Shown one piece after another: positions 7,777 through 25,326 of a stretch of 30,130 nt of DNA. The first letter of the stretch is position 1. The number at the start of each line of letters is the position of its first letter. A program made the position numbers and the translations under genes. This DNA is from Thermoanaerobaculia bacterium (lineage in GTDB: Bacteria; Acidobacteriota; Thermoanaerobaculia; Multivoradales; UBA5704): positions 1 to 30,130 of the forward strand of contig JBGAGQ010000073.1 of the NCBI GenBank assembly GCA_044226625.1, read 5' to 3'. The notes below the pieces were generated by a model. It was not told where the DNA came from. It saw only the letters and a list, made by a program, of their open reading frames with translations, and did not search any database.

Positions 7777-7779
7777 TCA

Positions 7780-7815: not shown

Positions 7816-7888
7816 AACCGGCGCCGGACCGCGCGTTCTCGCGAGCCCCAAGTCCCGTCGATCGTGGGCGTTCGAGGGCGGCAAGGCG

Positions 7889-7905
7889 TTGGTGCGGCCC
7901 TTGCT
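7889..7905 (+). promoter_or_regulatory. Sigma54 -24/-12 promoter candidate
   Basis: TTGGTGCGGCCCTTGCT: GG(7891-92)-N10-GC(7903-04) in a TTGCT -12 context. Confidence 0.65.
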
Positions 7906-7920
7906 CCACTCGGGTGCGTC

Positions 7921-8465: not shown

Positions 8466-9550
8466 CGGTCGAGGAGATCCCCGGCGAGCTGTTCTCCCGG
8501 TTTCCGCTCGGGATCGTCCTGGTCGACGAGGCCGGGACGGTGACGCGGATCAGCCGAGAGGCGAGCGAAGCGCTCGGTCACGCGCCGGGCTCGCTGGTGG
8601 GGACTTGCGTCGACGACCTGGTCGGCCGGCATCACGGGCTGGTCGAAAGCCTGAAGCGTCTTGCGCCCGGTACCGAGCGCCGGACCTCCTTCCGAGTGCG
8701 TCAGGCCAGCGGCTCGGAGCGGGAGCTGGGGCTCACCCTGGTCGCCTTCGAGACCGGCGCCCCGCCGTTCGCCTATGCGCTGATCGTGGGCGACCTCGGG
8801 CGCCTGCGTGAGGTCGAGCTCGACGTCCGGCGGTTCGAGCTCCTGGGTAGCTCGCTGCGGATCACCAGCGGCCTCGCCCACGTGCTGAGGAACCCGCTCG
8901 CGGCGATCCTCGGCTTCGCCGAGCTGCTCTCGTTCGAGCTGCCTCGCGATTCGGTGCACTGCGAGGACGCCGAGCGCATCCTCGCCATGGTCGGGCGCAT
9001 CGACGGGTTGATCAGCTCGTGCATGCGGCTTTCGCCGAGCGGCGCGCGGCGGATCGAGGTCGATCCGCTCATCGTGGTCGGCGCCGCGAGCGCGGCGCTC
9101 GCGGCGCGGTTTCCCGGCCTTCCGGCTCCCGGCCTGGCGATCGACGAGCCGCCGCCGCCGCTTTTCGTCGATCGCGAGCAGGCGGTCGAGGCGCTCTCGG
9201 CCCTGTTCGAAAACGCGGTCGAGGCGGCGGGCGGCGACGGAGCCCGGTTCGAGGTCGCCATCTCGGTCGAGCGGGGCGCGAGCGGACCGCCGTACGTGCG
9301 CCTGGCCGTGCGCGACGCGGGACCGGGGTGGGACGGGCTCGATCCGGCCCGCCTGTTCGATCCGTTCTTCACCACCAAGCCCGGGCACGTCGGGCTCGGC
9401 CTGGCCGTGGCTCAGGCGCTCGCGGTCGAGAACCGGGGGTTCATCGAGGCCGCGGGCCGCCCCGGAACCACGACGTTCTCTCTCGTGCTGCCCGCCGCCG
9501 GGCCGGGAAGGACGAAAGCTCCCGGAGCGGCGGAGAGCGCGTCGCCATGA
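8462..9550 (+). CDS. Cytoplasmic PAS histidine kinase (NtrB-like)
   Basis: N-terminal PAS (FPLGIVLVDEAGTV), H-box LAHVLRNPL, LFENAVEA, RDAGPG, FDPFFTTK, GLGL. TTG start 9 nt after AAGGAG. Confidence 0.88.
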   Translation: MTVEEIPGELFSRFPLGIVLVDEAGTVTRISREASEALGHAPGSLVGTCVDDLVGRHHGLVESLKRLAPGTERRTSFRVRQASGSERELGLTLVAFETGAPPFAYALIVGDLGRLREVELDVRRFELLGSSLRITSGLAHVLRNPLAAILGFAELLSFELPRDSVHCEDAERILAMVGRIDGLISSCMRLSPSGARRIEVDPLIVVGAASAALAARFPGLPAPGLAIDEPPPPLFVDREQAVEALSALFENAVEAAGGDGARFEVAISVERGASGPPYVRLAVRDAGPGWDGLDPARLFDPFFTTKPGHVGLGLAVAQALAVENRGFIEAAGRPGTTTFSLVLPAAGPGRTKAPGAAESASP

Positions 9551-10359
9551 AAGGCCCGCTCCTCCTCGTCGACGACGGGCAGGCGGAGATCGCCGATCTG
9601 GTGCAGATGTACGCCCTGAGCCTCACGAGCGGCCGGCTGGAGGTCCGTGAGGGAGATTGCCGCGGAGAGATCTGGTTCGAGCGGGGGCGGATCGTCCACG
9701 CGCAGGCGGGAGATCTCGAAGGGGACGAGGCGTTCTATCTCCTGATGACCTGGAGCGCCGGTGAGGTGGCGCTCAGCCGGGACTCCGCCCGGGCACCCCG
9801 AGCGACGATCGGGACCAGCTGGCAGCATCTCCTGCTCGAGGGGGCGCGGCGGATGGACGAAGGAGGACGCGAAAGTTACGATTTGGGGGAGGATCCCGAG
9901 GAGCCCGACGATCTTTCGCTCCGGTTCGGCCGGACCGGAGCGCTCGAGCCGGCGGGCGACGCGGCGGCCTTCGATACCCTCGAAACGGGAAACGGCATGG
10001 CAAACATCGAAGAAGGACTCCAGCGGCTGGCCGAGCTGGACGGCTTCGTCGGCGCCTGCTTGGTCGACAGCCACAGCGGTACCCTGGTGGGCTCACAAGG
10101 AGGGGGAAGCTTGAGCCTGGAGGCGGCGGCCGTCGGAAATTCCAAGGTCATCCGGGCCAAGCGGCAGACGATCTCGACGCTTCACCTCAAGGATTCGATC
10201 GAGGACATCTTGATCACCCTGGGCCGGCAGTACCACCTGATCCGGCCGATCGCGACGAACGAGGAGCTCTTCCTCTATCTCGTGCTCGACAAGACGCGCG
10301 CCAACCTCGCCCTCGCGCGTCACAAGCTGGCGGACACCGAGCGGGGCTTCGCGAGGTGA
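9547..10359 (+). CDS. DUF4388 (PATAN/PatA_N-like) domain fused to a roadblock/LC7-like domain
   Basis: IADLVQM..SGRLEV..GEIWFERGRIVHAQ..GDEAFYLLMTW..LLLEGARRMDE (DUF4388 pattern). The C-terminal 120 aa from Met 9997 are paralogous to 10591-10953. ATG overlaps the upstream stop. Confidence 0.85.
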   Translation: MKGPLLLVDDGQAEIADLVQMYALSLTSGRLEVREGDCRGEIWFERGRIVHAQAGDLEGDEAFYLLMTWSAGEVALSRDSARAPRATIGTSWQHLLLEGARRMDEGGRESYDLGEDPEEPDDLSLRFGRTGALEPAGDAAAFDTLETGNGMANIEEGLQRLAELDGFVGACLVDSHSGTLVGSQGGGSLSLEAAAVGNSKVIRAKRQTISTLHLKDSIEDILITLGRQYHLIRPIATNEELFLYLVLDKTRANLALARHKLADTERGFAR

Positions 10360-10398
10360 GACAAAGGGGGCCGGGAACGACCCCCGTCCGTCGTCGAG

Positions 10399-10416
10399 TG
10401 GGCACGAATCGTGCTA
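10399..10416 (+). promoter_or_regulatory. Sigma54 -24/-12 promoter candidate
   Basis: TGGGCACGAATCGTGCTA: GG(10401-02)-CACG-N6-GC(10413-14), exact N10 spacing and consensus GGCACG. Confidence 0.65.
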
Positions 10417-10590
10417 ACGGATTTCGCCTATCCAAGGGCACGCCTGAGTTTCTGTGCGCGCGGGGAAGTTCGGTAGGATCCCCCAGCCTACCCCTTGGGG
10501 TAGGGTAGGCGGTCGAAACGCCTCTGGTGGAGCTCGAACGACATCCAGCAAGGACCGAGGACGGGCGCATTTACAGGAGGACTGGTACAC

Positions 10591-10953
10591 ATGGCAAACA
10601 TCAAAGAGAGTCTGCAGAGCCTTGCCGAAATCGAGGGTTTCATCGGCGCCTGCCTCACCGACAGCAACAGCGGCATGATGATGGGTGCCGAAGGGGGAGG
10701 CACTCTCAACATGGAAACCGCGGCCGCCGGCAATACGGAGGTCGTCCGCGCCAAGCGCAAGACGATCGCCTCGCTCGGCCTCAAGGACAACATCGAGGAC
10801 ATCCTGATCACGCTGGGCCGGCAATACCACCTGATCCGCCCGCTGGCCACCCGCGAGGGCCTGTTCATCTACCTCGTGCTCGACAAGGGGCGTTCGAACC
10901 TCGCCTTGGCTCGCTTGCGCCTGGCCGACGCGGAGCGTGATCTCGTCGTTTGA
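10591..10953 (+). CDS. Roadblock/LC7 (MglB-like fold) protein
   Basis: Strong RBS CAGGAGG. GFIGACLTDSNSGMM, AAAGNTEVVRAK, IEDILITLGRQYHLIRP, LFIYLVLDK..NLALAR. Confidence 0.85.
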   Translation: MANIKESLQSLAEIEGFIGACLTDSNSGMMMGAEGGGTLNMETAAAGNTEVVRAKRKTIASLGLKDNIEDILITLGRQYHLIRPLATREGLFIYLVLDKGRSNLALARLRLADAERDLVV

Positions 10954-11004
10954 TCCGAGTGTCCGGACGCATTCCGGACGACTTACTAGGGAGGCAGCAT
11001 CGAC

Positions 11005-11373
11005 ATGGCGACTGAAAAAGACTACGCGGAGTTCTTCAACAAGATCGATGCCGAGATCTCGGGCCTGATCGCGGCTTCGGTCGTCGATCTCGAGTCGGGT
11101 ATGACGCTGGCCGTCCGCTCCAATCGGCAGGATTTCGATCTCTCGACGGCGAGCGCGTACAACAGCGAGATGGTCAAGATGAAGCTCAAGACCATCCAGG
11201 CGTTGGGACTTCGATCGGCGCTCGAGGACATGCTGCTCACGCTGTCCGACCAGATCCACCTGATCCGCTTGATCTCGCCCTCCGCATTCGTCTACATCGC
11301 CGTCGACAAAGCGAAGAGCAACCTCGCCATCGTTCGCACCGTGGTGGCGAAGCACGCCACGGCTCTCGCCTGA
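11005..11373 (+). CDS. Roadblock/LC7-like protein, more divergent paralog
   Basis: RBS GGGAGG. GLIAASVVDLESGMTL, ASAYNSEMVKMK, LEDMLLTLSDQIHLIR, FVYIAVDKAKSNLAIVR align to the preceding protein. Confidence 0.85.
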   Translation: MATEKDYAEFFNKIDAEISGLIAASVVDLESGMTLAVRSNRQDFDLSTASAYNSEMVKMKLKTIQALGLRSALEDMLLTLSDQIHLIRLISPSAFVYIAVDKAKSNLAIVRTVVAKHATALA

Positions 11374-11425
11374 CCTGAACGGGCGCCTGGCCGAGGGTGC
11401 CGGGCGCCGCTTTTCCCTTCCTCCC

Positions 11426-12904
11426 ATGGCGCGACTGGATTCCGAGCGAGAGTGTCTGGTCGTCCGCATCGTGTACGACGGCACGGCCTTGTCGGGCAAG
11501 ACCACGACGGTCAGGGCCCTCGGCGCGAGCCTCGTCCGCGACGTCGAAACCCCGGTCGAAGAAGCCGGGCGTACGCTCTATTTCGACTGGCTCGATTACA
11601 CGGGGGGGCGGTTCGACGGATTCCCGATCCGCTGCCAGATCGTCACCGTTCCCGGCCAGGCCGCGTTGGCCCGTCGTAGAGAGAAGCTGATCGAGGACGC
11701 CGACGCGGTCGTCTTCGTCGCCGACACCTCGGCCGACGGCTACGGGCCGAGCTTGGAGGCGTTGGGCGAAGCGATCGGCCACCTGGGACGGCGGAGCCCG
11801 CCGGTCGGCTTGGTCGTCCAGGCGAACCAGCGCGACCGCGCCGACGCCGTGCCGATCGAGACCGTGCGCGCCGATTGCGCAGCCCTTTCCAAGACCCTCG
11901 CGGTGACCGAATCGTCGGCGTTGACCGGATACGGGGTGCGCGAGACGTTCGTCCTCGCCGTGCGTCTGGCGCTCGACCGGGTGCGCGAGCTCAAAGGGGA
12001 GCGCCAGCTCGAGGTCGGGCGCCCGGACGTGGACGACGCGGTCCAGCTGCTCGCCGCCCTGCGGGCGGCCGATGCCTCGGCGGGCGCTTCCGACGCCCCG
12101 GGGATCGCGGAGAGGACGCCGGAGACCTGGGAGCGGCGGAAGACGCCGCGTCCGGCGTCCGAGGGGTCGTTTCCGCGCAACGCGCCATGGCCTCCCGACG
12201 CCTCCGTGCCGAGCGGCCTGATCTGGCCGCCGATGACCGGGCGGATGATCCTGCACGATTGGACCGAGCGCTCGATCGTGCCGATCCGCCTGGGCGACGG
12301 CTCCTGGGGCTACGAGGAGCCGGCCTGGCGCCTCCGTTCGGATCTCGAGGACCTGTATTTCGATTTCGACGAGGGGCGCGCCGCGCTGATCGAATGGGCC
12401 CGGCACCACGCCGCGCTCGGATCTCTCCTCTCCTCCCGTCGCGCGATCGTCCTCGCCCGTGCCGCGCCCGGTGCCTGGCGTCTTTGGCAGTTGGTCGCCC
12501 GCCTCCCCTCGCTCGAGGCGGAAGTCGCCGAGGCGATCGCGGGGGGCGCCACCCGGGCGATCGCGAGCTCCCTGCTGGGGGCCGCCAAGAAATGCCTCGA
12601 TTTCGAGGGCCGGTTCGCCGGCACTCCGATCGGCGGCCGAGCCTCCCTCGCCGATGTCGTGATCGAGGACGGCACGGCGGTCTTCGGCGGCCTCTTCCCT
12701 CGCCTCGGGCAGCTCGAAGAGCGGTCGGAGACGTCGGCGGGCGAGATCCTTCGCCGCTATCTCGGCGAGATCGTGAAGCGCTTCGTCGTCGCCGCGGAGC
12801 GGGAGAAGGGTCTCGAGGTTACGGTCGGGATCCGCCGGCTCGCCGAGCAGCGCGGTTGGCCCGGTATCGGCGAAGTCCTCTGCCGCCTCTTTCCGTCCGC
12901 CTGA
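11426..12904 (+). CDS. mglA: MglA-like small GTPase with ~300-aa C-terminal extension
   Basis: IVYDGTALSGKTT (G1), RTLYFD (G2), TVPGQ (G3), DAVVFVAD, NQRD (variant G4), SALTGYGVRETF (G5). These are the MglA-family motifs, followed by a linker and an unassigned domain. Confidence 0.85.
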   Translation: MARLDSERECLVVRIVYDGTALSGKTTTVRALGASLVRDVETPVEEAGRTLYFDWLDYTGGRFDGFPIRCQIVTVPGQAALARRREKLIEDADAVVFVADTSADGYGPSLEALGEAIGHLGRRSPPVGLVVQANQRDRADAVPIETVRADCAALSKTLAVTESSALTGYGVRETFVLAVRLALDRVRELKGERQLEVGRPDVDDAVQLLAALRAADASAGASDAPGIAERTPETWERRKTPRPASEGSFPRNAPWPPDASVPSGLIWPPMTGRMILHDWTERSIVPIRLGDGSWGYEEPAWRLRSDLEDLYFDFDEGRAALIEWARHHAALGSLLSSRRAIVLARAAPGAWRLWQLVARLPSLEAEVAEAIAGGATRAIASSLLGAAKKCLDFEGRFAGTPIGGRASLADVVIEDGTAVFGGLFPRLGQLEERSETSAGEILRRYLGEIVKRFVVAAEREKGLEVTVGIRRLAEQRGWPGIGEVLCRLFPSA

Positions 12905-13001
12905 GGGCAACTCTTACAAACGTTCTGGGGTGGGCACGGATTTTTTGCCCCCGTCCGGCCCGGATTCGGCCCTCGTCGCGGCCGGAACCGGGGCATTTTG
13001 C

Positions 13002-13019
13002 CGGGCATAGAACGTGCTC
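13002..13019 (+). promoter_or_regulatory. Sigma54 -24/-12 promoter candidate for the chemosensory operon
   Basis: CGGGCATAGAACGTGCTC: GG(13004-05)-N10-GC(13016-17). Shares GGCA...CGTGCT with the 10401 site. Confidence 0.55.
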
Positions 13020-13083
13020 TGTCGATGGGTAGCACCTTCAATGCGCTGCCGTTCGTGGTTGTGATCGCGGGGGATCTCCAGGC

Positions 13084-13236
13084 ATGGACCCATCGGTGAA
13101 AAAGAACTGGATCGAGGTTCAGAAGCGGTACGCCTTTCCGGTCAACGCGATCGGCCTGCGGATCGATCCGAAGGACGATTTCACGATGAAGGTCTGGCGC
13201 GCCGAGGGGCTCGATCAGTATCTGAAGAAGGATTGA
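13084..13236 (+). CDS. 50-aa small protein of unknown function
   Basis: MDPSVKKNWIEVQKRYAFPVNAIGLRIDPKDDFTMKVWRAEGLDQYLKKD*. GC3-biased codons and protein-like composition. Fills the gap between the promoter and the next gene; below the ORF-track size cut-off. Confidence 0.75.
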   Translation: MDPSVKKNWIEVQKRYAFPVNAIGLRIDPKDDFTMKVWRAEGLDQYLKKD

Positions 13237-13273
13237 TCGCGTCGCCGCGAGAGGTCCGAGAGAACGGAACCGA

Positions 13274-14575
13274 GTGGTCAAAGAGAGCGTGGGATTTCTC
13301 GAGGAGGCGGTTCAGGCCGCGAAGCGAGGCGACTCGGGCGGCGCGCGGAGCCTTCTGCTCCGGGCGAGCGAGAGCGAGCCGGACAACGAGCTGATCTGGC
13401 TCTGGCTCGCGCACCTGTCGACCTCGCCCGCCGACAAGACGAGCTACCTGCGCCGGGTCCTGGCGATCCATCCCGGCCACGAGGTCGCCCGCGCCGAGCT
13501 CGCCGACGTCCTGCGCGCCGAGGGGGTCGCCCTGGCCCGGGCGGGCTCGCGACGGCGCGCCCGCGAGCTGCTCGAAGGCTCTCTCGCGCTCGACGAGGGG
13601 AAAGAGGATTCCTGGCTCTGGCTCGCGGCGGTCGCCGAAACCCGGGAAGAGCGCCGCCGGTGCCTCAAGAAGGTGCTCGAGATCAATCCGCGCCACCGCC
13701 ACGCCCTCGCCCTGCTCGATCTGCCGGAGCTGCGCGATCCCACGAAGCCGGCCGCTCCGGGCGCCGAGACGCCGAACGCCGAGCCGAGCGGGTCGGCCGC
13801 CCCGAGCGGATCGTTCGCGCCGAAACGCTGCCCGTTGTGTCGCGGCGTCGGCTTCACCGGCGAGCGCTGCTCCTGGTGTCGGGCGCATTTCTCGCTCGGC
13901 GACCTGCGCGCGTTGGTGCGCAATGCCGAGGTCGATCGCGACCTGGTGGCCGCGGGGCTCCGCCGCCTCGCCGGCCTGCCGGGGGGCGCGGAGAATTTCG
14001 ACGTGCAGTTCGTCCTCGGCCTCGGGTACCTGAACCTCGGCCGGCTCGACGAGGGGATCCACGCGCTGGAAGGCGCGAGCCGGTTGCGCCCGGGGGACGG
14101 CCTGATCGCGACCCAGCTCGACGTCCTCAAGCTCTGGCGCCGGGGCAAGCCGACGTCCAAGCCCGTTCGCCGCGGCCGCGTGCTGGCGGTCGACGACAGC
14201 CCGACGGTGCTCAAGCTGGTGGCGAGCAGCCTGGAGCCGCACGGCTTCGAGGTCGAGGCGGCCGCGGCGGGCCTCGAGGCGCTCGCCCGCCTGCGCGAAG
14301 CCAAGCCGGATCTGGTCCTGCTCGACATCAACCTGCCGGGCATGGACGGCTATCAGGTCTGCAAGATCATCAAGTCCGATCCCGTCCTCAAGTCGGTGCC
14401 GGTGGTCTTCCTGTCCGGGCGCGGAGGGCTGTTCGATCGCATGCGCGGCCGGCTCGCCGGATCTTCGGACCACGTCCAGAAGCCCTTCGAGCCGCAGGCG
14501 CTGCTCGAGCTCGTCGAGCGCTTCGTCGCCGCGGGACGCGAGCCGGGCGCCGCGGGAGCCGCGCGGACGGCTTGA
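13274..14575 (+). CDS. TPR repeats + CxxC/CxxC zinc ribbon + TPR + PilG-like receiver
   Basis: Two WLWLA-type TPR repeats and CPLC..CSWC. C-terminal REC VLAVDDS, LLDINLPGMDGY, GGLFDRMRGRLAGSSDHVQKPF resembles the PilG GLFDxARGRxxG signature. Confidence 0.88.
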   Translation: MVKESVGFLEEAVQAAKRGDSGGARSLLLRASESEPDNELIWLWLAHLSTSPADKTSYLRRVLAIHPGHEVARAELADVLRAEGVALARAGSRRRARELLEGSLALDEGKEDSWLWLAAVAETREERRRCLKKVLEINPRHRHALALLDLPELRDPTKPAAPGAETPNAEPSGSAAPSGSFAPKRCPLCRGVGFTGERCSWCRAHFSLGDLRALVRNAEVDRDLVAAGLRRLAGLPGGAENFDVQFVLGLGYLNLGRLDEGIHALEGASRLRPGDGLIATQLDVLKLWRRGKPTSKPVRRGRVLAVDDSPTVLKLVASSLEPHGFEVEAAAAGLEALARLREAKPDLVLLDINLPGMDGYQVCKIIKSDPVLKSVPVVFLSGRGGLFDRMRGRLAGSSDHVQKPFEPQALLELVERFVAAGREPGAAGAARTA

Positions 14576-14661
14576 CGCGCCGTCGCAAGAAACCGGTTAC
14601 ATCGCAATCGCTGCAAAAATTGAAACACGTTTCGAGAAACACGTCCGAAAGGAAAAGACCG

Positions 14662-15027
14662 ATGCCGAGCGGAAAGATTCTGGTGGTCGAGGACAGCCCG
14701 ACCGAAATGACCCTGGCCACGTCCGCGCTTCAGGGGCGCGGTTATCGGATCGCCACCGCGGCGGACGGCGAGGAGGCGCTGAAGAAGATCCAGGACGACC
14801 GGCCCGACCTGGTCCTGCTCGACGTCGTCCTGCCCGGGAAGAACGGATTTCAGATCTGCCGTGAGATCAAGTCGAAAGCCGAAACCAAGGCGATCAAGGT
14901 CGTGCTCGTGACCAGCAAGAACCAGGAGTCCGATCGGTTCTGGGGCATGAAGCAAGGGGCCGACGAATATCTGACCAAGCCGTATTCGAACGACGACCTG
15001 CTGGCCCTCGTGTCTCGGCAGATCTGA
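14662..15027 (+). CDS. pilH: Single-domain CheY-like response regulator, PilH-like
   Basis: ILVVEDSPTE, LLDVVLPGKNGFQICR, TSKNQESDRFWGMKQGADEYLTKP (PilH signature). RBS AAGGA. Confidence 0.88.
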   Translation: MPSGKILVVEDSPTEMTLATSALQGRGYRIATAADGEEALKKIQDDRPDLVLLDVVLPGKNGFQICREIKSKAETKAIKVVLVTSKNQESDRFWGMKQGADEYLTKPYSNDDLLALVSRQI

Positions 15028-15063
15028 TCGCGCGACGGACCGCGGCGGCGAAGGGAAAAGGAT

Positions 15064-15765
15064 TTGGACGGCGAGCCCGGCAACGGCGATCGAACGAACG
15101 AGCCCGAAGCGGCCGAGCCGCGCGGCTCCGGGGCGGAGCCTGCCCGCGCCGTGCCGCTCGAGGAGTGGATCGGCCGCCTGGAGGCCGATCTCGAGCGCGA
15201 CCGAGCGGGCTCGGCGGTGGAGCGGGGACCGGCCGCGGCGCCGCGCGCCCCGGCGCGGCGCGGCGCGAGCGCCGGGCGGTCGGTGCTCTTCGACCTCGGC
15301 GGAACGCGTTCGGCGCTCCCCATCGACCGGGTCTTCGAGGTGGGCGAGGTGCCGAAGATCACGCCGGTGCCGAACGTCCCCCGCTGGCTCGCGGGAGTCG
15401 TCAACCTGCGCGGCGACGTCCTCGCCGTGGTCGACCTGCGGGCGCTGGTGGGGCTGTCGCCGTTCGATCGCGAGAGCCGGCCGGGGCGACTCCTGGTGGT
15501 GCGCTCCGCGCCGGGCGCCGACGGCGAGGTCGCCGCGGGGCTCTGGGTCGACGCCGTGCTCGGCGTCGCCGAGCTTTCGCCCTCCGATCTCGCGCCGCCC
15601 GAAGGGCCGCTCGACGACGCGCTCGCGGCGCTGGTCGAAGGGGTGACCGTGCGCGACGGCCGGATGATCGCGGCGCTCGACCTCGACGCCCTGCTCGCGC
15701 ATCCGGAGCTGGCGCGGCTGCGCTCGGAAGGCGCGCCGCGAGGCTCCTCGCGAGCGAGATTTTGA
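15064..15765 (+). CDS. cheW: CheW-family coupling protein (PilI-like) with low-complexity N-terminal extension
   Basis: ITPVPNVPRWLAGVVNLRGDVLAVVDL, GLWVDAVLG, LDLDALL. Start codon (TTG) uncertain. Confidence 0.9.
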   Translation: MDGEPGNGDRTNEPEAAEPRGSGAEPARAVPLEEWIGRLEADLERDRAGSAVERGPAAAPRAPARRGASAGRSVLFDLGGTRSALPIDRVFEVGEVPKITPVPNVPRWLAGVVNLRGDVLAVVDLRALVGLSPFDRESRPGRLLVVRSAPGADGEVAAGLWVDAVLGVAELSPSDLAPPEGPLDDALAALVEGVTVRDGRMIAALDLDALLAHPELARLRSEGAPRGSSRARF

Positions 15766-15874
15766 GACATGAACTCGAACGTTTCGTTTCCTGCTGGGTT
15801 GAGGCGTACCGCAGCACGCCGGACGCCGATGGAGCTTGCGTAGACCAGCCGGGTAGACCTAGGGAAGGACGGTC

Positions 15875-18052: not shown

Positions 18053-18074
18053 GGGCTAGCGGAGCAGGGGTTCG

Positions 18075-19013
18075 ATGATGCGTGGGTCGATGGACATCGA
18101 TCGGCCGGAGCTTTTGCTCCACGAGGCCGCGCTGTGGCGCTCGGCGATCGCCGGGCGCTGCGGGCTCGACTTCGGCGAGGGGCGGGAAAAGAGCCTCTCG
18201 CGCGGCCTGTGGGGCCGGGCGCGCGAGGTGGGCGTCAGCTCGTACGCCGAATACCGGCGCTACCTCGCCGCCGACGGTCGCGAGTGGCAGCGCCTGATCG
18301 AGCGGCTGGTCAATCACGAAACCCGCTTCTGGCGCCACGCGCCCTCCTTCGAATACCTCACCGAGGTGGCGCTGCCGACGCTGCGGCGGGAGCGGGCGCA
18401 GCGAGGGGATTTGCGGCCGATCGTCCTCTGGAGCGCCGGCTGCTCGACCGGCGACGAGGCGTACTCCCTCGCGATGGCGGGCCTGGCGGGGGCACCGGTT
18501 CTGGCGCCGGGAGGGAAGGCTCCTTCGTCCGGGGCGGTGCGTGTCCTCGGCACCGATCTTTCGGAAGCCGCGATCGAGCGCGCCCGCGCCGGCCGCTACG
18601 CCGAGCGTTCGGTCGCGTCGTTGCCGCCCGGCTTCGCGCGCCGATTCCTGATCGAGACGAAAGAGGCGGAAGGGGGCGATCGCCGGCGTCCTTTCGCGGT
18701 CCGCCCCGAAGTGCGCGCGGTGACCTCGTTTTGGTGCGCGAGCTTGGTCGCGTCCGGGGGAGAGGGCGTGCCGGCCGAGCCGGTCGACGTGATCTATTGC
18801 CAGAACGTCCTGCTTTATTTCCAACCCGAGGTGCGCCTCGACGTGGTTCGCCGCCTGGCGCGGCGTCTCGCGCCGGGCGGCTATCTGATTCTCGCCCCGG
18901 GCGAGATCGTCGGTCTCCGCCTGCCGGAGCTCGAAGGTCCGCGCTCCTCGTCGGCCGCGGTTTACCGGCGGGTCTCGTCGTCCGAGGCCGTACGAGCCGC
19001 GGAGGAGAGCTGA
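18075..19013 (+). CDS. cheR: Chemotaxis methyltransferase CheR (PilK-like)
   Basis: NHETRFWRH, WSAGCSTGDEAYSLA, GTDLS, DVIYCQNVLLYF, LAPGGYL. Confidence 0.93.
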   Translation: MMRGSMDIDRPELLLHEAALWRSAIAGRCGLDFGEGREKSLSRGLWGRAREVGVSSYAEYRRYLAADGREWQRLIERLVNHETRFWRHAPSFEYLTEVALPTLRRERAQRGDLRPIVLWSAGCSTGDEAYSLAMAGLAGAPVLAPGGKAPSSGAVRVLGTDLSEAAIERARAGRYAERSVASLPPGFARRFLIETKEAEGGDRRRPFAVRPEVRAVTSFWCASLVASGGEGVPAEPVDVIYCQNVLLYFQPEVRLDVVRRLARRLAPGGYLILAPGEIVGLRLPELEGPRSSSAAVYRRVSSSEAVRAAEES

Positions 19014-22000
19014 TGGCGCGTCCGATCGATCCGGAAATCCTCGCCGGCTTCCTCGCCGAGGTGCGCGGCTACCTGCCGCGGATCGCGAGCGCGCTCGCCG
19101 GGGCGCGCGACGGCGACCGAGACCCCAAGGCGTTCGCCGAGGCGTATCGCCTGATGCACAGCATCAAAGGGGCGAGCTCGATGATCGGCCTCGCCGGCCT
19201 GTCGCACATCGCCTTCTACGCCGAGCAGCTGCTCGACGAGCTGCAGCTCGGCGAGCGGATCCTGGACGATCCGCTCACCCGCTTGCTCGGCGCGCTGCTC
19301 GACCGGATCGACGCCACGATCGACGGCATCGACAGCGCCGGCGGTGCGGGCGACGGCGAGCTCGCCTCGCGCGAGAGGCTCGCCGCGACGGTGGCCGAGT
19401 GCCGCCGGCTGCGCGGCCTGCCGCCGGAAGGCGACGCGGCCGAGCTCGAATCGCTGCTCGAGGCCGGGAAGGGGGCGCCGCCGGTCGAAGGTCTCTCGTC
19501 GGCGTCTCCGGCGGTCGAGGAGCCGCAAGCCGGCGGACCGAGCCCGTTCGAGGAGGAGACCCTTCCCGATCTTTCGATGCTCGACTTCGACGCCCTTCCG
19601 TCGGCCCGGGAGCCCGTCCGTGAGTCGATTCGCGAATCGAAACGACCGGCGATCGCCGCGGACCTCCTCGAGACCTTCCTCGAAGAAGCCGAGGTCCACC
19701 TCCAAGCGATCGCCGGGGCGCTGCGCGCCCTGTCGGCCGACGCCGCGGATCGCTCGGCGCTCCTGTCCGTGCGGCGCAGCGTCCATACCTTGAAAGGTGC
19801 GGCGAGCCTGGTCGGCTTCGGCGACCTGGCGCGCATCGCCCACCGCATGGAGGACCTCCTCGATTCCCTCGCGGACGGCGGCGAGGAGCCTTCGGAATCC
19901 GACCTCCAGCTCCTGTTCCGCACCACGGACGCGCTCGAAGATCTGGCGGCGGGCGGCACGCCGGCCGACCTGGCGGAGATCGCCGAGATCGCCGAGCTCG
20001 CCGGCCGCTACGACGCGCGCCTCGGAGACGGCGAGCCGTCCGCCGCGCCTGCGCCGCTACGCCTGGCTCCTCCGCTCGACCCTGGGCCCTCGTTGCGCCT
20101 CGCGAGCTTCCTCGAGCGCTCGGCTCCGGAGGAGCCCGTCGGGGATCTCGGGGATCTTAGGGATCGCGCCGATTCCTCGGGCGATTCGATGACCGCTGGG
20201 AGCAGCGATCGGTCCGCCGATCGCACGACGGACCGAATGACGGATCGAATGGCGGATCGAACCTCCGATCGCATGGCGGGGCCGACGCTCCGCGTGCCGC
20301 TCGAGCGGCTCGACGACGTCGTCCGTCTGGCGAGCGAGCTGGTGGTCCATCGCTCGGTCTTCGAGCGTCACGTGGCGGAACTGCAGCGCCGGGTCGACGA
20401 GATGATCGCGAGCCACGAGCGGCTGCGGCGTCTCGCCGGGCGGCTCGAGGCCGACTACGAGGTGCGCGCCCTTCTCGGCGTCGCGGCGGTCGGCTCCGGC
20501 GTGGCTCCGGTGGGTGTCGGCGCCTCGGGCTTCGAGGCTCCCTCCGGGTTCGATCCGCTCGAGCTCGACCGCTACACCGAGTTTCACCTGCTGTCGCGGG
20601 AGCTGGCCGAGACGGCGAGCGACCTCTCGGCGGTAGGCGTCGAGATCACGTCGTCGCTGGTCGATTTCGACGGCGACCTGACGCGTCTCGGGCGCCTTTC
20701 GAGCGACGTCCAGAACCGGCTGATGCGTCTGCGCATGGTGCCGCTCGCGCAGCTCGCCTCGCGGCTCCATCGGACGGTCCGCGTGACCGCGGAGCAGGAG
20801 GGCAAGCAGGTCGACCTGGAGATCGTGGGCGAGACGGTCGAGATCGACAAGACCGTGCTCGAAGAGCTGGCGGACCCCTTGCTTCATCTGCTGCGCAACG
20901 CGGTCGCCCACGGCATCGAGCCCGCGGCGCTGCGCAGCGCGACCGGCAAGCCCGCTCGGGGACGCATTCGCGTCCACGCGATCTACGAGGGAACGCAGGT
21001 CACCGTGCGGGTGAGCGACGACGGTGCGGGGATGGACCCGCAAGGGCTGATCGCCGCGGCGCTCGCCGCGGGACGGATCACGGAGGAGGCCGCCGCGACG
21101 CTCTCCGAAGAGCAGGCGATCGACCTCGCCTTCCTACCCGGTCTTTCGACCGCGGGCGCGCTCTCCGAGGTCTCGGGGCGCGGCGTCGGGCTCGACGTCG
21201 TGAAGGCCGGCGTCCACCGCGCCAAGGGGAACGTCTCGGTCCGCTCCGCGCCGGGGCTGGGCACGACGTTCTCGATCCGCCTGCCGATGAGCCTCGCGGT
21301 CGCGAAGGTGCTCATGGTGCGTTCGCGGGGCGAGACGTTCGCCGTGCCCCTCGCCTCGGTCGCCCAGATCCTGCGGGTCGACCGCTCGGCGGTCGAGACG
21401 TTCGGTCGCGAGCCGGTCATCTCGCTCGACGGCAAGGTCTACCCCTTCCTCGACCTCGGCGAGCGCTTGCGGCTCGGTGGCGCTCCGGAGGAGCCCGCCG
21501 CCCAGGTGCCGGTCCTGTTCCTCTCGTTGGGAGAACGCAAGGCGGCGCTCGCGGTCGATCAGGTCGGCCAGGCGCGCGAGGTGGTCGTCAAGCCGCTCGG
21601 ACCGCTGCTCGGCCGGGTTCCGGGCATCTCGAGCGCCACCCTCTCGGGCGACGGCGAGGTGGTGCTGATCGTCAACCCGTCCGAGCTGGTGGGCATCGAT
21701 CCGGGCGCCGGGTTCGAGGTCGACGCCACGTCCGGGCCGTCGACCGCCGCGCCGCCGCGCCCGATCGAGGTCATGGTGGTCGACGATTCGCTCTCGGTGC
21801 GGCGCGTGCTGGGCAACCTGATCCACGGCGCGGGGTGGCGCGCGGTTCCGGCCCGCGACGGCCTCGAGGCGCTCGAGCTGCTCCAGGAGGGGGACCACGA
21901 TCCCGACGTGCTCCTGCTCGACATCGAGATGCCGCGGATGGACGGCTACGAGCTCACGGCGACGTTGCGCGGCATGCCGGAGTTCGCGGGTCTGCCGATC

Positions 22001-22144
22001 GTCATCCTGACCTCGCGGGCGGGCGAGAAGCACCGGCAGCGCGCCTTCGAGCTCGGCGCCACGGAATACCTGGTCAAGCCGTACGAGGACGCGACCCTGC
22101 TCGCGGTGGTCCGGCGGCTCGCTCGCGAGGCGCGCCCGACGTGA
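19013..22144 (+). CDS. cheA: CheA/ChpA-like hybrid kinase (2 Hpt, dimerization, HATPase, CheW, REC)
   Basis: Hpt1 MHSIKG, Hpt2 VHTLKG, LRVPLERLD, PLLHLLRNAVAHGIE, SDDGAG, SGRGVGLDVV, CheW domain, C-terminal REC LLDIEMPRMDG..KP. ATG overlaps the cheR stop. Confidence 0.96.
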   Translation: MARPIDPEILAGFLAEVRGYLPRIASALAGARDGDRDPKAFAEAYRLMHSIKGASSMIGLAGLSHIAFYAEQLLDELQLGERILDDPLTRLLGALLDRIDATIDGIDSAGGAGDGELASRERLAATVAECRRLRGLPPEGDAAELESLLEAGKGAPPVEGLSSASPAVEEPQAGGPSPFEEETLPDLSMLDFDALPSAREPVRESIRESKRPAIAADLLETFLEEAEVHLQAIAGALRALSADAADRSALLSVRRSVHTLKGAASLVGFGDLARIAHRMEDLLDSLADGGEEPSESDLQLLFRTTDALEDLAAGGTPADLAEIAEIAELAGRYDARLGDGEPSAAPAPLRLAPPLDPGPSLRLASFLERSAPEEPVGDLGDLRDRADSSGDSMTAGSSDRSADRTTDRMTDRMADRTSDRMAGPTLRVPLERLDDVVRLASELVVHRSVFERHVAELQRRVDEMIASHERLRRLAGRLEADYEVRALLGVAAVGSGVAPVGVGASGFEAPSGFDPLELDRYTEFHLLSRELAETASDLSAVGVEITSSLVDFDGDLTRLGRLSSDVQNRLMRLRMVPLAQLASRLHRTVRVTAEQEGKQVDLEIVGETVEIDKTVLEELADPLLHLLRNAVAHGIEPAALRSATGKPARGRIRVHAIYEGTQVTVRVSDDGAGMDPQGLIAAALAAGRITEEAAATLSEEQAIDLAFLPGLSTAGALSEVSGRGVGLDVVKAGVHRAKGNVSVRSAPGLGTTFSIRLPMSLAVAKVLMVRSRGETFAVPLASVAQILRVDRSAVETFGREPVISLDGKVYPFLDLGERLRLGGAPEEPAAQVPVLFLSLGERKAALAVDQVGQAREVVVKPLGPLLGRVPGISSATLSGDGEVVLIVNPSELVGIDPGAGFEVDATSGPSTAAPPRPIEVMVVDDSLSVRRVLGNLIHGAGWRAVPARDGLEALELLQEGDHDPDVLLLDIEMPRMDGYELTATLRGMPEFAGLPIVILTSRAGEKHRQRAFELGATEYLVKPYEDATLLAVVRRLAREARPT
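20207..20278 (+). repeat. Six degenerate 12-bp coding repeats (DRxx)6 in the CheA linker
   Basis: DRSA DRTT DRMT DRMA DRTS DRMA, encoded by GAY-CGN-based 12-mers. Confidence 0.8.
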
Positions 22145-23262
22145 GCCGGCCGGCGCGGGTCCTCGTCGTCGACGATTCGCCGTTCGTCTGCCGGCTGGTC
22201 GCGGGCTACCTCGCGGCCGAGCCGGATCTCGAGGTCGCGGGCACGGCCCATTCCGGATCGCAGGCGCTCGAGCGCCTGCGCGAGCTCCGGCCGGACGTGG
22301 TCGCGCTGGATCTCGAAATGCCCGAGCTCGACGGCCTCGAGGTCGTGCGGCGCGCGATGGCCGAGCGGCCGACGGCGATCGTCGTGATCACCGGCGCGAG
22401 CGGCCGCGCGGCGACCCGGACGCTGCAATCGCTCGACGCGGGAGCGGTCGATTTCGTCCTCAAGTACGCGCCGGGCACGCGGCTCGACCCCTTGGAGCTC
22501 CGGCGCGAGATCGTGGCGAAAGTCCGCGCCGCGGCGGGCGTGCGCGTGGTCCGCTCGCTGCCGCAGCGGACCGCCTATCTGCCGCCTCCTTTCGCCGTGT
22601 CGCTCTCGGAGGGCGCCGCGCGCGCCCGGACCGCGGGACCGGGTGGCGTCGTGGTGATCGGCGCCTCGACCGGCGGACCGCTCGCGCTGCGCCAACTCCT
22701 CGCCGAGCTGCCGAGCGATTTCACCTGGCCGGTGTTGATCGTCCAGCACATCCCGGCGAGCTTCACCGGCGTCCTCGCGGCCCAGCTCGACCGTCATTCG
22801 CCGCTGCCGGTGCGGGAGGCGGAGGCGGGCGACCGCCTGGTTGCGGGATCGGTCTTCGTCGCGCCGGGCGGGCGCCATTGCCTGGTCGGCCGCGACGGCC
22901 GGATCGAGCTCTCCACCGGGCCGGAGGTCGGCGGACATCGGCCGTCGGTCGACGTCGCGCTCCAGTCGGCCGCGCAGGCTCTCGGCGGCCGCTCGATCGG
23001 CGTCCTGCTCTCCGGCATGGGCGACGACGGGGTGGAGGGGCTGCGCGCGGTGCGCGCCAAGGGGGGCCGCACGTTCGCCCAGGACGCGGCGAGCTGCGTC
23101 GTCGCCGGCATGCCGCAGCGCGCGATCGAAGCGGGCGTGGTCGATGCGGTGGCGCCGCCGTCCGAGATCGGCCGCCTGCTCGGCGCGATCGACCGGGAGC
23201 GGCCGGGCGAAGTCGGCGCCTCGGGGTCCGCGCCACCGGCACGGCGGGCCGAGGGAGGGTGA
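22141..23262 (+). CDS. cheB: Chemotaxis methylesterase CheB (REC + esterase)
   Basis: REC VVDDS, LDLEMP. Catalytic GASTGG, VQHIP, SGMGDDG; HRPSVD. GTG start overlaps the cheA stop. Confidence 0.95.
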   Translation: MSRPARVLVVDDSPFVCRLVAGYLAAEPDLEVAGTAHSGSQALERLRELRPDVVALDLEMPELDGLEVVRRAMAERPTAIVVITGASGRAATRTLQSLDAGAVDFVLKYAPGTRLDPLELRREIVAKVRAAAGVRVVRSLPQRTAYLPPPFAVSLSEGAARARTAGPGGVVVIGASTGGPLALRQLLAELPSDFTWPVLIVQHIPASFTGVLAAQLDRHSPLPVREAEAGDRLVAGSVFVAPGGRHCLVGRDGRIELSTGPEVGGHRPSVDVALQSAAQALGGRSIGVLLSGMGDDGVEGLRAVRAKGGRTFAQDAASCVVAGMPQRAIEAGVVDAVAPPSEIGRLLGAIDRERPGEVGASGSAPPARRAEGG

Positions 23263-23265
23263 CCG

Positions 23266-24276
23266 ATGGCTCGGATCGCCCATTTCCTCCTCGGCAAGGA
23301 TCGATTCGCGATCGACCTCGCGGCCCTCTCGGGGATCGAACGGACGGACCGGCTGCAGAGGGTGCCCACGGAGCCCACCGCGACCTCACACCCGTCGGCC
23401 GCCGCGCCGGTCTCGGCGATCGGCTGGCTGCTCGGTCCGCGCGAGGACCTGCCGGTCTATCGCCTGAGCCAGCTGTTGGGGGTGCCCCAACCGGAGGAGG
23501 GACCGCGGGAAGGGGTCGTCCTGGTGTGCGCGGCGACGTCGGGCGGCGCCGCCGGCTCGTTCGGCCTCCTGGTCGATGAGCTCGAGCGCTCACGGGATTC
23601 GGCCGTCGCCGTCCATGCTTTGCCCGAGCCGTTCCGGCGCGCCGGCGTGGCGGCGTTCTCCGGCGTCGTCCGATCGGCGGGCGCGCTGTCGCTCCTGGTC
23701 GATCCGGCGCGGTTGTTGTCGGACGGACGCGGCGCGGGCTCGGCGGGCGAAGAGGGCCTGTCCCGCGTCGGCGCCGTGGAGGATGTCCCCGCGCCGTGCG
23801 CCGCGGGCTCGGCGCGTCCGGCGTCGCGCGTCCTGTTGGCCGATCTTTCGGTCGAGGATCCCGTCGGTCGGCGGACCTTCGCCGCGTTGGCCGCGGGACA
23901 GGTTCGGGAGGTGACCGAGGCGCTGCCGACGCTCGCCGTGCCCGGGGCGCCCTCTCGCCTGCCGGGGTTGATCCTCTGGCGCGATCAACCGCTGCCGTTG
24001 CTGGATCTGGCGGCGGGCCTCGATGGCTGGTCTCGGCCCGCGATCCCGCGGCGGGAGCCTCGGCGTTTCGTGATCGCCGACGCGGGACGCCAGATCCTGG
24101 CGCTGCCGGTGGGCCGGGACGTGCGGTTCGAGCGCCTGCCGCTGCCCGCGACCGAGCCGATCGAGATCGAGCCCGCTCTCGTCGAACTGGGGGTCCGCGC
24201 CGGCTACGTCCAAGCAGGCTCGCTCCTGCTCGTATTCGATCTTGGGCATTCGCTCTTGCGAGGCCAGTTGACATAA
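23266..24276 (+). CDS. Tandem CheW-domain protein (ChpC-like position)
   Basis: Two degenerate CheW repeats: IGWL..LPVYRLSQLLG..GLLVDE and VPGAPSRLPGLILWRDQPLPLLDL. RBS GAGGGAGG. Confidence 0.8.
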   Translation: MARIAHFLLGKDRFAIDLAALSGIERTDRLQRVPTEPTATSHPSAAAPVSAIGWLLGPREDLPVYRLSQLLGVPQPEEGPREGVVLVCAATSGGAAGSFGLLVDELERSRDSAVAVHALPEPFRRAGVAAFSGVVRSAGALSLLVDPARLLSDGRGAGSAGEEGLSRVGAVEDVPAPCAAGSARPASRVLLADLSVEDPVGRRTFAALAAGQVREVTEALPTLAVPGAPSRLPGLILWRDQPLPLLDLAAGLDGWSRPAIPRREPRRFVIADAGRQILALPVGRDVRFERLPLPATEPIEIEPALVELGVRAGYVQAGSLLLVFDLGHSLLRGQLT

Positions 24277-24288
24277 GGTTCGGCGAGA

Positions 24289-25326
24289 ATGCATCGGGTC
24301 CTCGTGATCGACGACAACCAGGACGACCTCGCGCTGGCCGATGCCGCGCTCTCCAAGGCGGGTTTCGAGGTGCTGCTGCTGGACGGGCCGCTGCGCGCCG
24401 TCGACATCGCCGCGGCGCACGCCGTGTCCGCGATCGTGCTCGACCGGCGGATGCCCGGGTCGTCCGGGATCGACGTGCTGCGCGCGATGCGCGCCGACGC
24501 CCGGACCCGACCGGTTCCGATCCTCTTCCTTTCCGCCGACGGCGACGTCCAGTCGCGCATCGAGGGGCTCGAAGAAGGGGCGGACGACTATCTCGGAAAA
24601 CCGTTCCATCCGAGCGAGCTGGTCCTGCGCCTGGAGCGCCTGGTCTCGCGCGGCGCGAGCGCGGAACACAGTTTGGAAGGTCGGATCGAGGACGTCCCCC
24701 TGCCCGACGTCCTCCAGACGCTCATGCACGGCCGGCTGAGCGGCGTTCTGATCGCGGCCGGCGGCGCGATCGGTCGGATCGTGCTCCACCGTGGCGAGAT
24801 TTGCGCCGCCTCCAAAGGAGACCTCTCGGGCCGGGAGGCGCTGATCGACTTGATGTCGACGCCGAAAGGGCGCTTCCGCTTCATCGCGGGCGATACCGAC
24901 CGGGAGCGCTCGGAGTGCGTGGCGGAGATCGATTTGAACGGCGCGCTCCTCGACGCCGCGTGGACCTCCGACGAGCTCCAGCGGGTCGAGAAGCACCTGC
25001 CGCCCAAAGAGGGTCTGCTCTGGCTCCGCCGGACGCCGCGACCGGTCGACGCCTCGCGGCCGCTGCCGATCGACGAGGTGGCGGCCGGTTTGCGCCGGCG
25101 CCCCGGCTCGACGTTCGCCGAGCTCGCGGCCGACCTCGCGCTCGCGCCCCAACGGGTGGCGCTCACCGTGGCGACGTTGATCGCCGAAGGGAGCGTCGCG
25201 GTGGCCGGAACGTTCGCCTCGACCGCCGCCATCGCGGCCGCGGCAGCTCCCGCCATCGTCGCTCCGCCACCCGCCGAACCTGCACCGTCCGAAGGGGTCG
25301 CGGTGGCCGAGGAGCCCCGTTCTTGA
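24289..25326 (+). CDS. Response regulator REC + DUF4388 (PATAN-like) + possible C-terminal helical/wHTH region
   Basis: VIDDN, VLDRRMPG, GADDYLGKPF. Then LEGRIEDVPLPDVLQTLMHGRLSGVL..GRIVLHRGEI..GRFRF..LLDAAWTSDE. Confidence 0.88.
   Translation: MHRVLVIDDNQDDLALADAALSKAGFEVLLLDGPLRAVDIAAAHAVSAIVLDRRMPGSSGIDVLRAMRADARTRPVPILFLSADGDVQSRIEGLEEGADDYLGKPFHPSELVLRLERLVSRGASAEHSLEGRIEDVPLPDVLQTLMHGRLSGVLIAAGGAIGRIVLHRGEICAASKGDLSGREALIDLMSTPKGRFRFIAGDTDRERSECVAEIDLNGALLDAAWTSDELQRVEKHLPPKEGLLWLRRTPRPVDASRPLPIDEVAAGLRRRPGSTFAELAADLALAPQRVALTVATLIAEGSVAVAGTFASTAAIAAAAAPAIVAPPPAEPAPSEGVAVAEEPRS

Follow-up and report, generated by a model that had tools for sequence, protein, structure and literature searches.

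The question raised by this locus is whether a chemosensory array can be wired to a small GTPase of the MglA type. Pil-Chp chemosensory systems and MglA polarity switches are usually treated as two separate solutions for steering pili. In a 30,130-nucleotide stretch of DNA from a Thermoanaerobaculia bacterium (contig JBGAGQ010000073.1 of assembly GCA_044226625.1, positions 1 to 30,130; hereafter the window), genes for an MglA-like GTPase and its small partner proteins are followed on the same strand by a chemosensory (che) operon. We read the locus as two joined signalling units, the che array acting on the GTPase switch toward type IV pili, and give this reading a probability of about 0.5. 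In these soil bacteria the sensory array probably acts on the switch, because the operon adjoins the GTPase module and the two share a protein domain.

Genes were called from the G+C content of third codon positions in each frame (frame-specific GC3) together with clean open reading frames (ORFs), and protein families were assigned with Pfam; NCBIfam was also run. Genomes, loci, contigs and the proteins compared carry G-, L-, C- and P-labels, respectively, G000 being the genome of the window itself. Across this G+C-rich DNA (~70%), the genes from 5000 to 29635 form a single co-oriented string on the plus strand. A preliminary description of the window had placed a GTPase block upstream of che genes in Pil-Chp order and in the same orientation, with DUF4388/PATAN proteins bracketing the block at 9547 and 24289. 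Pfam and the ORFs confirmed the gene list, the order and the orientation, and PF14332 was found in both bracketing proteins.

The first unit would consist of the GTPase, which is of MglA Group 1 type, two small paralogous proteins encoded directly upstream of it (RD2 and RD3, after the domain that we call RD) and a PATAN-RD adaptor; its usual input would be a histidine kinase with a receiver (REC). The second would run from a small ORF through TPR-REC, a single-domain REC protein, CheW, a methyl-accepting chemotaxis protein (MCP), CheR, CheA, CheB and a double-CheW protein, and continue into a REC-PATAN response regulator, a hybrid kinase and an MHYT protein. TPR-REC is the che regulator in which an N-terminal TPR domain of ~145 aa, a CxxC..CxxC motif and a second TPR region precede the REC domain. 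The strongest evidence that this regulator and the RD/GTPase module may act on a common partner is that they share the TPR domain. A search of 5.8 billion proteins with residues 1-160 of TPR-REC found only 28 proteins, 20 of the TPR-REC type and eight of the TPR-RD type (297-345 aa), with the RD domain C-terminal in all eight. RD2 is encoded as a single TPR-RD2 ORF of 313-360 aa in G049/L104, L105 and G009; the TPR is fused to a third RD (RD3') in one ORF in G034, and TPR and RD2 are split by a stop in G040. TPR-RD2 and TPR-REC share 65% identity in their TPR. Since a remnant resembling the small ORF precedes TPR-RD2 in G027 and L105, RD2 seems to have acquired a copy of the che operon's 5' end.

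The history of the junction was followed within the group closest to the window, where the GTPase tree places the eight closest GTPases together in one clade, fully supported and set on a long stem. The window has the full string, including CheR and CheB. The same order without CheR/CheB, and with the MHYT gene before REC-PATAN, occurs in G049 (= L104) and L105; CheR is also absent from G027 and G045, and present in G019. Within the genus of the window, G027 (L243, G027:C41, 10370-13858) has the kinases, REC-PATAN-RD and TPR-RD2 directly before TPR-REC and the che operon. The che contig of G019 carries the operon with CheR/CheB, followed by REC-PATAN, the hybrid kinase and MHYT. The operon lies at a contig end in G045, and no GTPase was found in that genome, which is scored 85% complete. 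In G009, G034 and G040 the GTPase gene is followed by REC-PATAN and the hybrid kinase. In G040 the spacer between GTPase and REC-PATAN still contains the small ORF's initial 15 codons, a few MHYT codons and a fragment of TPR-REC (residues 204-260, E 4e-14); G009 retains only the C-terminal half of MHYT, and both REC-PATAN and the hybrid kinase are truncated in G034. These three che-less genomes are monophyletic in the GTPase tree (support 94/81). By the deletion scars and the monophyly, the che-less state is derived and the junction ancestral in the clade, whose ancestor would have carried the che operon between the GTPase gene and REC-PATAN. The pair of REC-PATAN and hybrid kinase is next to the GTPase in G009 and in G040, next to the che operon in G019, and next to both in the window. 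In the company of REC-PATAN and the che operon, the hybrid kinase and MHYT recur in G019, G049, L104, L105 and G027.

Several observations weigh against coupling of the two units, however. Within the clade three lineages have an intact junction, one lacks RD3 and the GTPase, one has the units unlinked, and three genomes have che deleted. RD3, the GTPase and REC-PATAN are missing from G027 while the che operon stays; the RD/GTPase block and the che operon lie on different contigs in G019; and G009, G034 and G040 have kept RD/GTPase with no orthologous CheA (best 36-37%). The junction, although ancestral in this Thermoanaerobaculia clade, is evidently unstable, having been broken in at least three ways, and by the same gene comparison it is dispensable. 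Outside the clade, a che neighbour was found at 0/13 genome-contig loci, 0/8 family loci and 1/78 metagenome loci. In the window itself, the GTPase gene ends 179 bp before the small ORF and 369 bp before TPR-REC, and for this reason the GTPase module and the che operon may be separate transcripts. The RD2 of the window has neither the TPR nor any remnant of it, and the PATAN-RD protein has lost its REC, so that here the contact with TPR-REC cannot be through an RD2-borne TPR. A 43% identical GTPase paralogue of G027 was seen on another contig (L246).

It is possible, if on the improbable side, that the two units lie next to each other uncoupled. In that case the che operon, REC-PATAN and the hybrid kinase would form a self-contained pilus controller of the Pil-Chp or Tax type, and the RD-GTPase module would be driven by its own histidine kinase, HK2, and receiver. 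Each unit survives alone (G009, G034 and G040 on one side, G027 and G019 on the other), the 179-bp gap between them is among the largest in the string, nearly all other lineages have the module without a che neighbour, and the module is usually accompanied by a histidine kinase together with a receiver and an NtrC-type regulator. Mere adjacency accounts less readily for a TPR domain restricted to TPR-REC and TPR-RD proteins, or for the small-ORF-like remnant before TPR-RD2 in G027 and L105, which points to duplication of the 5' end of the operon onto RD2. The adjacency is also kept in 4/5 of the che-bearing lineages whose contigs allow a look, and an independent che link occurs at L110. Unlinking in related genomes had been named in the preliminary description as the finding that would speak against a joined controller, and it is in part what we found, with almost no che neighbours outside the clade and several breaks inside it, against ancestral linkage within the clade. 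The proposal of a hybrid controller joining three modules is partly supported by the one co-oriented string and the shared TPR, and has to be narrowed to one clade in which the arrangement is unstable.

If the two units are coupled, signalling might proceed as follows. The receptor array would control CheA, which would phosphorylate TPR-REC and the small REC protein, and perhaps REC-PATAN. The TPR domain would bring the phosphorylated regulator to the RD/GTPase complex, where it would change the nucleotide state or the location of the GTPase. RD2 and RD3 might serve as an MglB-like, probably heterodimeric, regulator platform with the role of a GTPase-activating protein (GAP). The PATAN domains would link this complex to the motor of type IV pili, a role that PATAN regulators have in cyanobacteria. 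As a more speculative extension, which we consider rather unlikely, phosphorylated TPR-REC might displace or mimic RD2 on the GTPase, since its TPR would be the domain by which RD2 is anchored, giving a direct path from CheA to the GTPase. Such a path, if true, would be the direct link between CheA and a GTPase regulator that is still unresolved for Frz/MglA, and it would use two domain families without a database model, the RD-like domain and the GTPase's C-terminal domain.

Support for a pilus output comes from the rest of the genome, which encodes PilB, PilM, PilQ and six members of the PilT family, each scoring above its curated cut-off; FlhA was not found, at a completeness score of 97.9%. 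PATAN domains of Synechocystis bind PilB1 and PilC (10.1101/2021.06.11.447907), and MglA of M. xanthus works on pili together with SgmX, a TPR protein (PMC7519303). On these grounds type IV pilus control would be the most likely output. No pilus genes were seen beside the module at L009, L012 and L178, which counts against this output.

The GTPase is built of a G domain (residues ~1-190) and a C-terminal domain (~255-492) that is conserved, joined by a variable linker, and gave no Pfam or NCBIfam match above cut-off. Searched against the PDB with phmmer, its residues 12-186 matched MglA of T. thermophilus (3t12, E 9.5e-21), and there were matches to the M. xanthus MglA structures 5ymx, 6h17 and 6hjh (E 7e-17 to 1.2e-16). 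Its motifs are a GxxxxGKT P-loop, R49-T50, T74VPGQ78 and N134QRD137. MglA Group 1 has been defined by TVPGQ and an intrinsic Arg beside the G2 Thr (Wuichet and Sogaard-Andersen 2014, PMC4316618), and the GTPase has the Ras-like G domain, TVPGQ and the Arg next to the G2 Thr. Among 41 homologues P76, G77, Q78, R49 and T50 are invariant and V75 is at least 90% conserved; T74 falls outside the conserved columns, the family consensus reading SVPGQ. The 55 invariant columns of these sequences spread over both domains. The earlier naming of an MglA-motif GTPase is therefore upheld for the G domain, which is of Group 1 type, and not for the whole protein, since at 492 aa it exceeds the single-domain size of Group 1 (~160-200 aa) and a canonical mglB-mglA pair sits on another contig (C5; a 194-aa MglA beside a 164-aa MglB). 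This indicates that the GTPase is not MglA itself; it is 28% identical to the genome's own 194-aa MglA. Canonical MglB was found in 41/41 family genomes and in 93/121 genomes of a phylum sample, the latter count taking in two genomes flagged unpublished (G084 and G109).

The C-terminal domain of the GTPase (~240 aa) is conserved and of no known family. Its profile had no match in the PDB (best E 0.11), no consistent Pfam family appeared among 33 members, and there was no usable Atlas match, the model of homologue P0012 being poor (predicted local distance difference test score, pLDDT, 0.49). The domain also occurs as a stand-alone protein of 295 aa in the window's own genome (G000:C81:118277-118819; L003 1255-2142, minus strand), and in G019 a divergent gene that encodes it adjoins the RD block (L045 17509-18039). 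A word-index search with the GTPase, in which 8000 candidates were scored, yielded 615 full-length homologues at E<=0.001. The 120 homologues listed of these 615 have 443-538 aa, and the named sources among the matches listed are Acidobacteriota, Thermoanaerobaculia, Vicinamibacteria, Polyangiales and Kofleriaceae. The genome of the window has a paralogous GTPase on contig C132, without RD neighbours.

The conserved core is RD-RD-GTPase. A metagenome scan with the GTPase alignment gave 80 loci, and contigs of species-representative genomes gave 16. An RD gene lies directly upstream of the GTPase at all 71 metagenome loci with at least 400 bp upstream, and both RD types were found at 53/64. Where at least 5 kb of upstream sequence was available in the metagenomes, the neighbourhood included a PATAN gene (22/37), a histidine kinase-like gene (24/37) or an NtrC-like gene (23/37). 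RD genes are upstream of the GTPase at 14 of the 16 genome loci. By source names the module occurs in Acidobacteriota, Myxococcota and Steroidobacteraceae, including the cultured Povalibacter uvarum DSM 26723, Peristeroidobacter soli and Steroidobacter flavus. Its distribution is patchy, with 16/61 family genomes positive at E<=1e-20 and the GTPase in 3/401 genomes of the phylum sample at E<=1e-40 (three candidates per genome scored). The che genes adjoin the module at 3/80 metagenome loci (the clade members L104 and L105, and L110), 0/16 genome-contig loci and 0/8 family loci outside the genus. At L110 (1006-9187) the GTPase is a 41% identical relative, and PATAN-RD-RD2-RD3-GTPase adjoins a divergent che-type operon (CheA-AAA_22-CheW-REC) in which there is also a HEAT-repeat gene. 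Downstream of the GTPase in Povalibacter (L009) and Steroidobacter (L012) are unrelated metabolism genes; directly upstream of RD2 in both is a true Robl_LC7 gene. In Steroidobacter flavus (L012 8049-9157) an ATP_bind_1 gene (GPN-loop type) and the true Robl_LC7 gene precede RD2-RD3-GTPase, which would make this a module with two GTPases.

The RD proteins had been described as three roadblock-fold domains, and of this claim the paralogy was established. RD2 (P0002) is 70% identical to residues 151-266 of PATAN-RD (E 5e-60) and 42% identical to RD3 (P0003; E 2e-26), which marks the three as true paralogues, and across 41 sequences the RD domains fall into two well-kept subtypes, A and B. The fold was not recognised by sequence or profile methods. 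We consider it likely that RD domains have the alpha-beta-beta-alpha-beta-beta-beta roadblock fold. The RD proteins of the window had no Pfam or NCBIfam match, PF03259 included, the RD family profile found no Roadblock/LC7 structure in the PDB, and a six-frame PF03259 scan of the genome gave none on the window's contig even at E<=10 and four weak-to-good matches elsewhere. Besides MglB, Robl_LC7 matches distant from the window were a pair at G000:C39:11948-12579 (E 3.8e-18 and 0.003) and one at G000:C5:72801-73043 (E 0.004). Aligned to MglB with hhalign, RD covered 103-110 columns in register at 28-32% identity, though with E values of 0.015 and 0.05 and probabilities of 3% and 1%. A phylum-level MglB alignment gave no higher hhalign score against RD, and when diverse MglB homologues were sought, every sequence returned was 84-100% identical to the query. 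Of the 41 members of the RD alignment, one matched Robl_LC7 weakly (E 0.16) and five had weak LAMTOR5 matches, and the best PDB match was the Roadblock/LC7 protein 7yh1 at a non-significant E of 0.45. The register of the hhalign alignments and the weak LAMTOR5 and 7yh1 matches thus point the same way, toward MglB and roadblock. Group 1 MglA is expected to have a coupled MglB gene within four genes; RD2 and RD3 adjoin the GTPase, and PF03259 does not recognise them.

That the RD proteins are instead a different small alpha/beta domain, serving the C-terminal domain of the GTPase as adaptor, effector or exchange factor rather than as MglB-like GAPs, appears unlikely to us. Such a role would agree with the lack of significant similarity to Roadblock/LC7, and as L009 and L012 have true Robl_LC7 genes beside RD2/RD3, the GAP role could belong to those. 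It agrees less well with a full-length, in-register alignment to MglB at this identity, with weak matches that go to LAMTOR5 and a Roadblock/LC7 structure and not to other folds, and with the two coupled MglB genes known in some MglA systems (PMC4316618).

The wider RD family suggests that the domain behaves like a GTPase-linked signalling output domain. The RD profile found 2440 cluster representatives at E<=0.001, in most of which the domain sits C-terminally in a longer protein. Among 35 longer RD proteins scanned, 10 were REC-PATAN-RD, eight PATAN-RD, three REC-RD, four BLUF-RD, two Dynamin_N-RD and one TPR-RD, with seven having no other domain. The fusions to BLUF blue-light sensors are P0170, P0189, P0238 and P0245, and those to dynamin-family GTPases are P0251 and P0261, one of them named from a Halovulum isolate. 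Residues 1-12 of the window's PATAN-RD match the REC start of the 386-aa orthologue P0454, after which the alignment jumps to residue 132. The protein is, by this alignment, a REC-deleted form of the REC-PATAN-RD of sister genomes, produced by an in-frame internal loss.

The che genes encode, in order, TPR-REC, REC, CheW, MCP, CheR, CheA, CheB and a double CheW. The order REC-REC-CheW-MCP-CheR-CheA-CheB-CheW is that of Pil-Chp, and two CheY-like proteins, CheW, MCP, CheR, CheA, CheB and a second CheW are the gene set and order of the type IV pili (Tfp) class of chemosensory systems; the Pil-Chp components are listed in PMC13599512. The MCP has two transmembrane segments, a ~280-aa periplasmic domain of no assigned family, HAMP and a signalling tip at about residues 581-585 (by hydropathy and motif). 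From tip to C-terminus there are 144 residues, at most 20 heptads per arm, and this arm length would be compatible with class 40H, the MCP heptad class of PilJ (PMC13599512). CheA has two Hpt domains with HxxKG motifs, REC at residues 920-1033 and no P2 domain. The multiple Hpt domains, missing P2 and C-terminal REC are those of Tfp-class CheAs, with the same architecture in the class of alternative cellular functions (ACF); ~93% of multi-Hpt CheAs fall in these two classes (PMC10782961). The public names of the CheA orthologue are generic and give no class. Several homologues of TPR-REC carry the automatic Joint Genome Institute (JGI) name 'twitching motility response regulator PilG'. The small ORF is 76-84% identical directly upstream of TPR-REC in G049/L104 and G019; public annotators call it as a 52-aa gene, with 10 members in its 90% cluster. 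It has no family and stays with the che operon where the operon is unlinked from the GTPase.

Two of these features weigh against our reading, namely that the MCP has no PilJ-type sensor domain in Pfam and that the CheA architecture fits both Tfp and ACF. An ACF-type system with a non-motility output (for example matrix, biofilm, or gene expression by way of the hybrid kinase and sigma-54 regulator), in which the GTPase module is output or input, would agree with the multi-Hpt CheA with C-terminal REC, typical of ACF as well as Tfp (PMC10782961), with an NtrC-type activator and several kinases as conserved neighbours, with the missing PilJ-type sensor, and with the three che clusters of a genome in which FlhA was not found at a completeness score of 97.9%, so that the clusters need not all serve pili. 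We nevertheless regard such a system as distinctly unlikely. The gene order is that of Pil-Chp, two CheW-type adaptors are present as in gammaproteobacterial Tfp-class systems (PMC13599512), the only cases in which PATAN has been tested connect it with the pilus motor (10.1101/2021.06.11.447907), and TPR-REC homologues are named PilG by JGI.

Table 1. Genes of the co-oriented string in the window and the basis of their assignment.
Feature	Position	Strand	Basis
PAS histidine kinase	5000-6400	+	Pfam; conserved upstream neighbour of module
NtrC-type sigma-54 response regulator	6397-7776	+	Pfam; conserved upstream neighbour of module
Single REC	7921-8298	+	Pfam
PAS histidine kinase HK2	8462-9550	+	Pfam
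PATAN(DUF4388)-RD, 270 aa	9547-10359	+	PF14332 E 6.2e-18
RD2, 120 aa, A-type RD-like protein	10591-10953	+	Paralogy; no Pfam family
RD3, 122 aa, B-type RD-like protein	11005-11373	+	Paralogy; no Pfam family
GTPase, 492 aa	11426-12904	+	PDB matches, motifs; no Pfam family above threshold
Small 50-aa ORF, first gene of che operon	13084-13236	+	Conservation in sister genomes
TPR-CxxC..CxxC-TPR-REC, PilG position	13274-14575	+	Pfam, alignment
Single-domain REC, PilH position	14662-15027	+	Pfam 1.4e-28
CheW, PilI position	15064-15765	+	Pfam 5.8e-31
MCP with HAMP	15875-18052	+	Pfam 2.2e-39
CheR	18075-19013	+	Pfam 6.9e-35
CheA: Hpt x2, H-kinase_dim, HATPase_c, CheW, C-terminal REC	19013-22144	+	Pfam
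CheB	22141-23262	+	Pfam 5.1e-64; NCBIfam NF001965 above cut-off
Double-CheW protein, ChpC position	23266-24276	+	Pfam, two stretches
REC-PATAN response regulator	24289-25326	+	Pfam: REC 7e-22, DUF4388 5.3e-12
Membrane hybrid histidine kinase, four PAS domains	25323-28772	+	Pfam
MHYT protein	28811-29635	+	Pfam

Orthologues of the first PAS kinase and the NtrC-type regulator hold the same position in L104, L105 and L243, and orthologues of the single REC and HK2 were found in L043, L104 and L243. The stop of HK2 overlaps the start of PATAN-RD by 4 nt, as does the stop of REC-PATAN the start of the hybrid kinase. Intergenic distances stay between -4 and 109 bp from TPR-REC through the hybrid kinase. 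The two widest gaps in the whole string lie ahead of RD2 (231 bp) and behind the GTPase (179 bp). Matches to the sigma-54 promoter pattern numbered four against 5.6 expected, and no sigma-70-like site was found in 7700-15200. A hairpin at 11382-11408, between RD3 and the GTPase, was no better than shuffled sequences (z = -0.58) and was rejected as a feature. Metatranscriptome contigs from two runs of one study cover RD2-RD3 (10468-11360) and parts of the GTPase and the small REC gene, a weak hint that these genes are expressed, as the contigs show no transcript ends and may reflect DNA carry-over.

Upstream of the string, an IS3-type transposase gene (694-1566; rve, HTH_21) is flanked by two Acido-Lenti-1 RNA motifs (RF01687) on the plus strand, at 124-168 and 1616-1660 (scores of 42.7 and 48.9 bits, each exceeding the gathering threshold). 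The motif may be part of the insertion-sequence ends and not a free-standing small RNA. An H+-pyrophosphatase gene at 2152-4575 is the only minus-strand gene of the window, with GC3 of 0.97-1.00 compared to 0.8-0.9 in its neighbours.

The arrangement had been put forward as uncharacterised. Our literature searches, which did not extend to supplementary tables, turned up no account of che genes joined to an MglA-like module or of this 492-aa GTPase family. According to the survey in PMC4316618, MglA genes of Groups 1 and 5 are occasionally near PATAN genes, as are MglB genes, and the proximity of MglA/MglB and PATAN genes is also mentioned in the Synechocystis preprint (10.1101/2021.06.11.447907); the survey treats single-domain GTPases and, among chemosensory systems, Frz only. 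The physical junction and the shared domain make the locus a testable candidate for a chemosensory kinase talking to a small GTPase. Even apart from its che link, the RD-RD-GTPase module represents a large signalling system that lacks annotation, and its cultured carriers open it to genetics.

Among known systems, the MglA/MglB/MglC, RomR/RomX and Frz proteins of M. xanthus are alike in having a Ras-like G domain with TVPGQ and an intrinsic Arg, small partner genes adjoining the GTPase, and a chemosensory pathway with a CheA-REC upstream. In M. xanthus the TPR protein SgmX links the GTPase to pili, and a TPR protein might play a like part here. The gene order of Frz differs from that of Pil-Chp, which is the order in the window. 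The window GTPase has a ~240-aa extra domain compared to M. xanthus, its partners are not recognisable as MglB, and the genome has a separate canonical mglBA pair. Also, mglA of M. xanthus is not near its partners (PMC4316618), whereas here the che operon adjoins the GTPase module.

The order of gene types is shared with the Pil-Chp system of P. aeruginosa (PilG, PilH, PilI, PilJ, PilK, ChpA, ChpB and ChpC), as are a multi-Hpt CheA with C-terminal REC, CheR, CheB, two response regulators and two CheW-type adaptors. In contrast to P. aeruginosa, the 'PilG' of the window has a 300-aa TPR/zinc-ribbon extension and its 'ChpC' two CheW domains. The window CheA has two Hpt domains compared to 8-9 in P. 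aeruginosa (PMC10782961), there is no PilJ-type sensor, and P. aeruginosa is without an MglA-type module according to a 2025 review. Cyanobacterial Tax/Pix systems likewise encode PATAN response regulators with a Tfp-type che operon, and in these PatA-type regulators the PATAN domain provides the output, binding PilB1 and PilC (10.1101/2021.06.11.447907). PF14332 is present in both PATAN proteins of the window, in the orders REC-PATAN and PATAN-RD; the PatA-type order, N-terminal PATAN with C-terminal REC, occurs in neither. Unlike in Tax/Pix, the first-position regulator carries TPR rather than PATAN, and a GTPase is present.

Actinobacterial conservons (CvnA kinase, CvnB roadblock protein, CvnC and the MglA-like GTPase CvnD) are alike as operons of a kinase, small roadblock-type proteins and an MglA-family GTPase (PMC4316618). 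Their Group 2 GTPases have GTPGQ and no Arg (PMC4316618), compared to TVPGQ and Arg in the window. PATAN, the C-terminal GTPase domain and the che operon set the window apart from the conservons, which are without all three.

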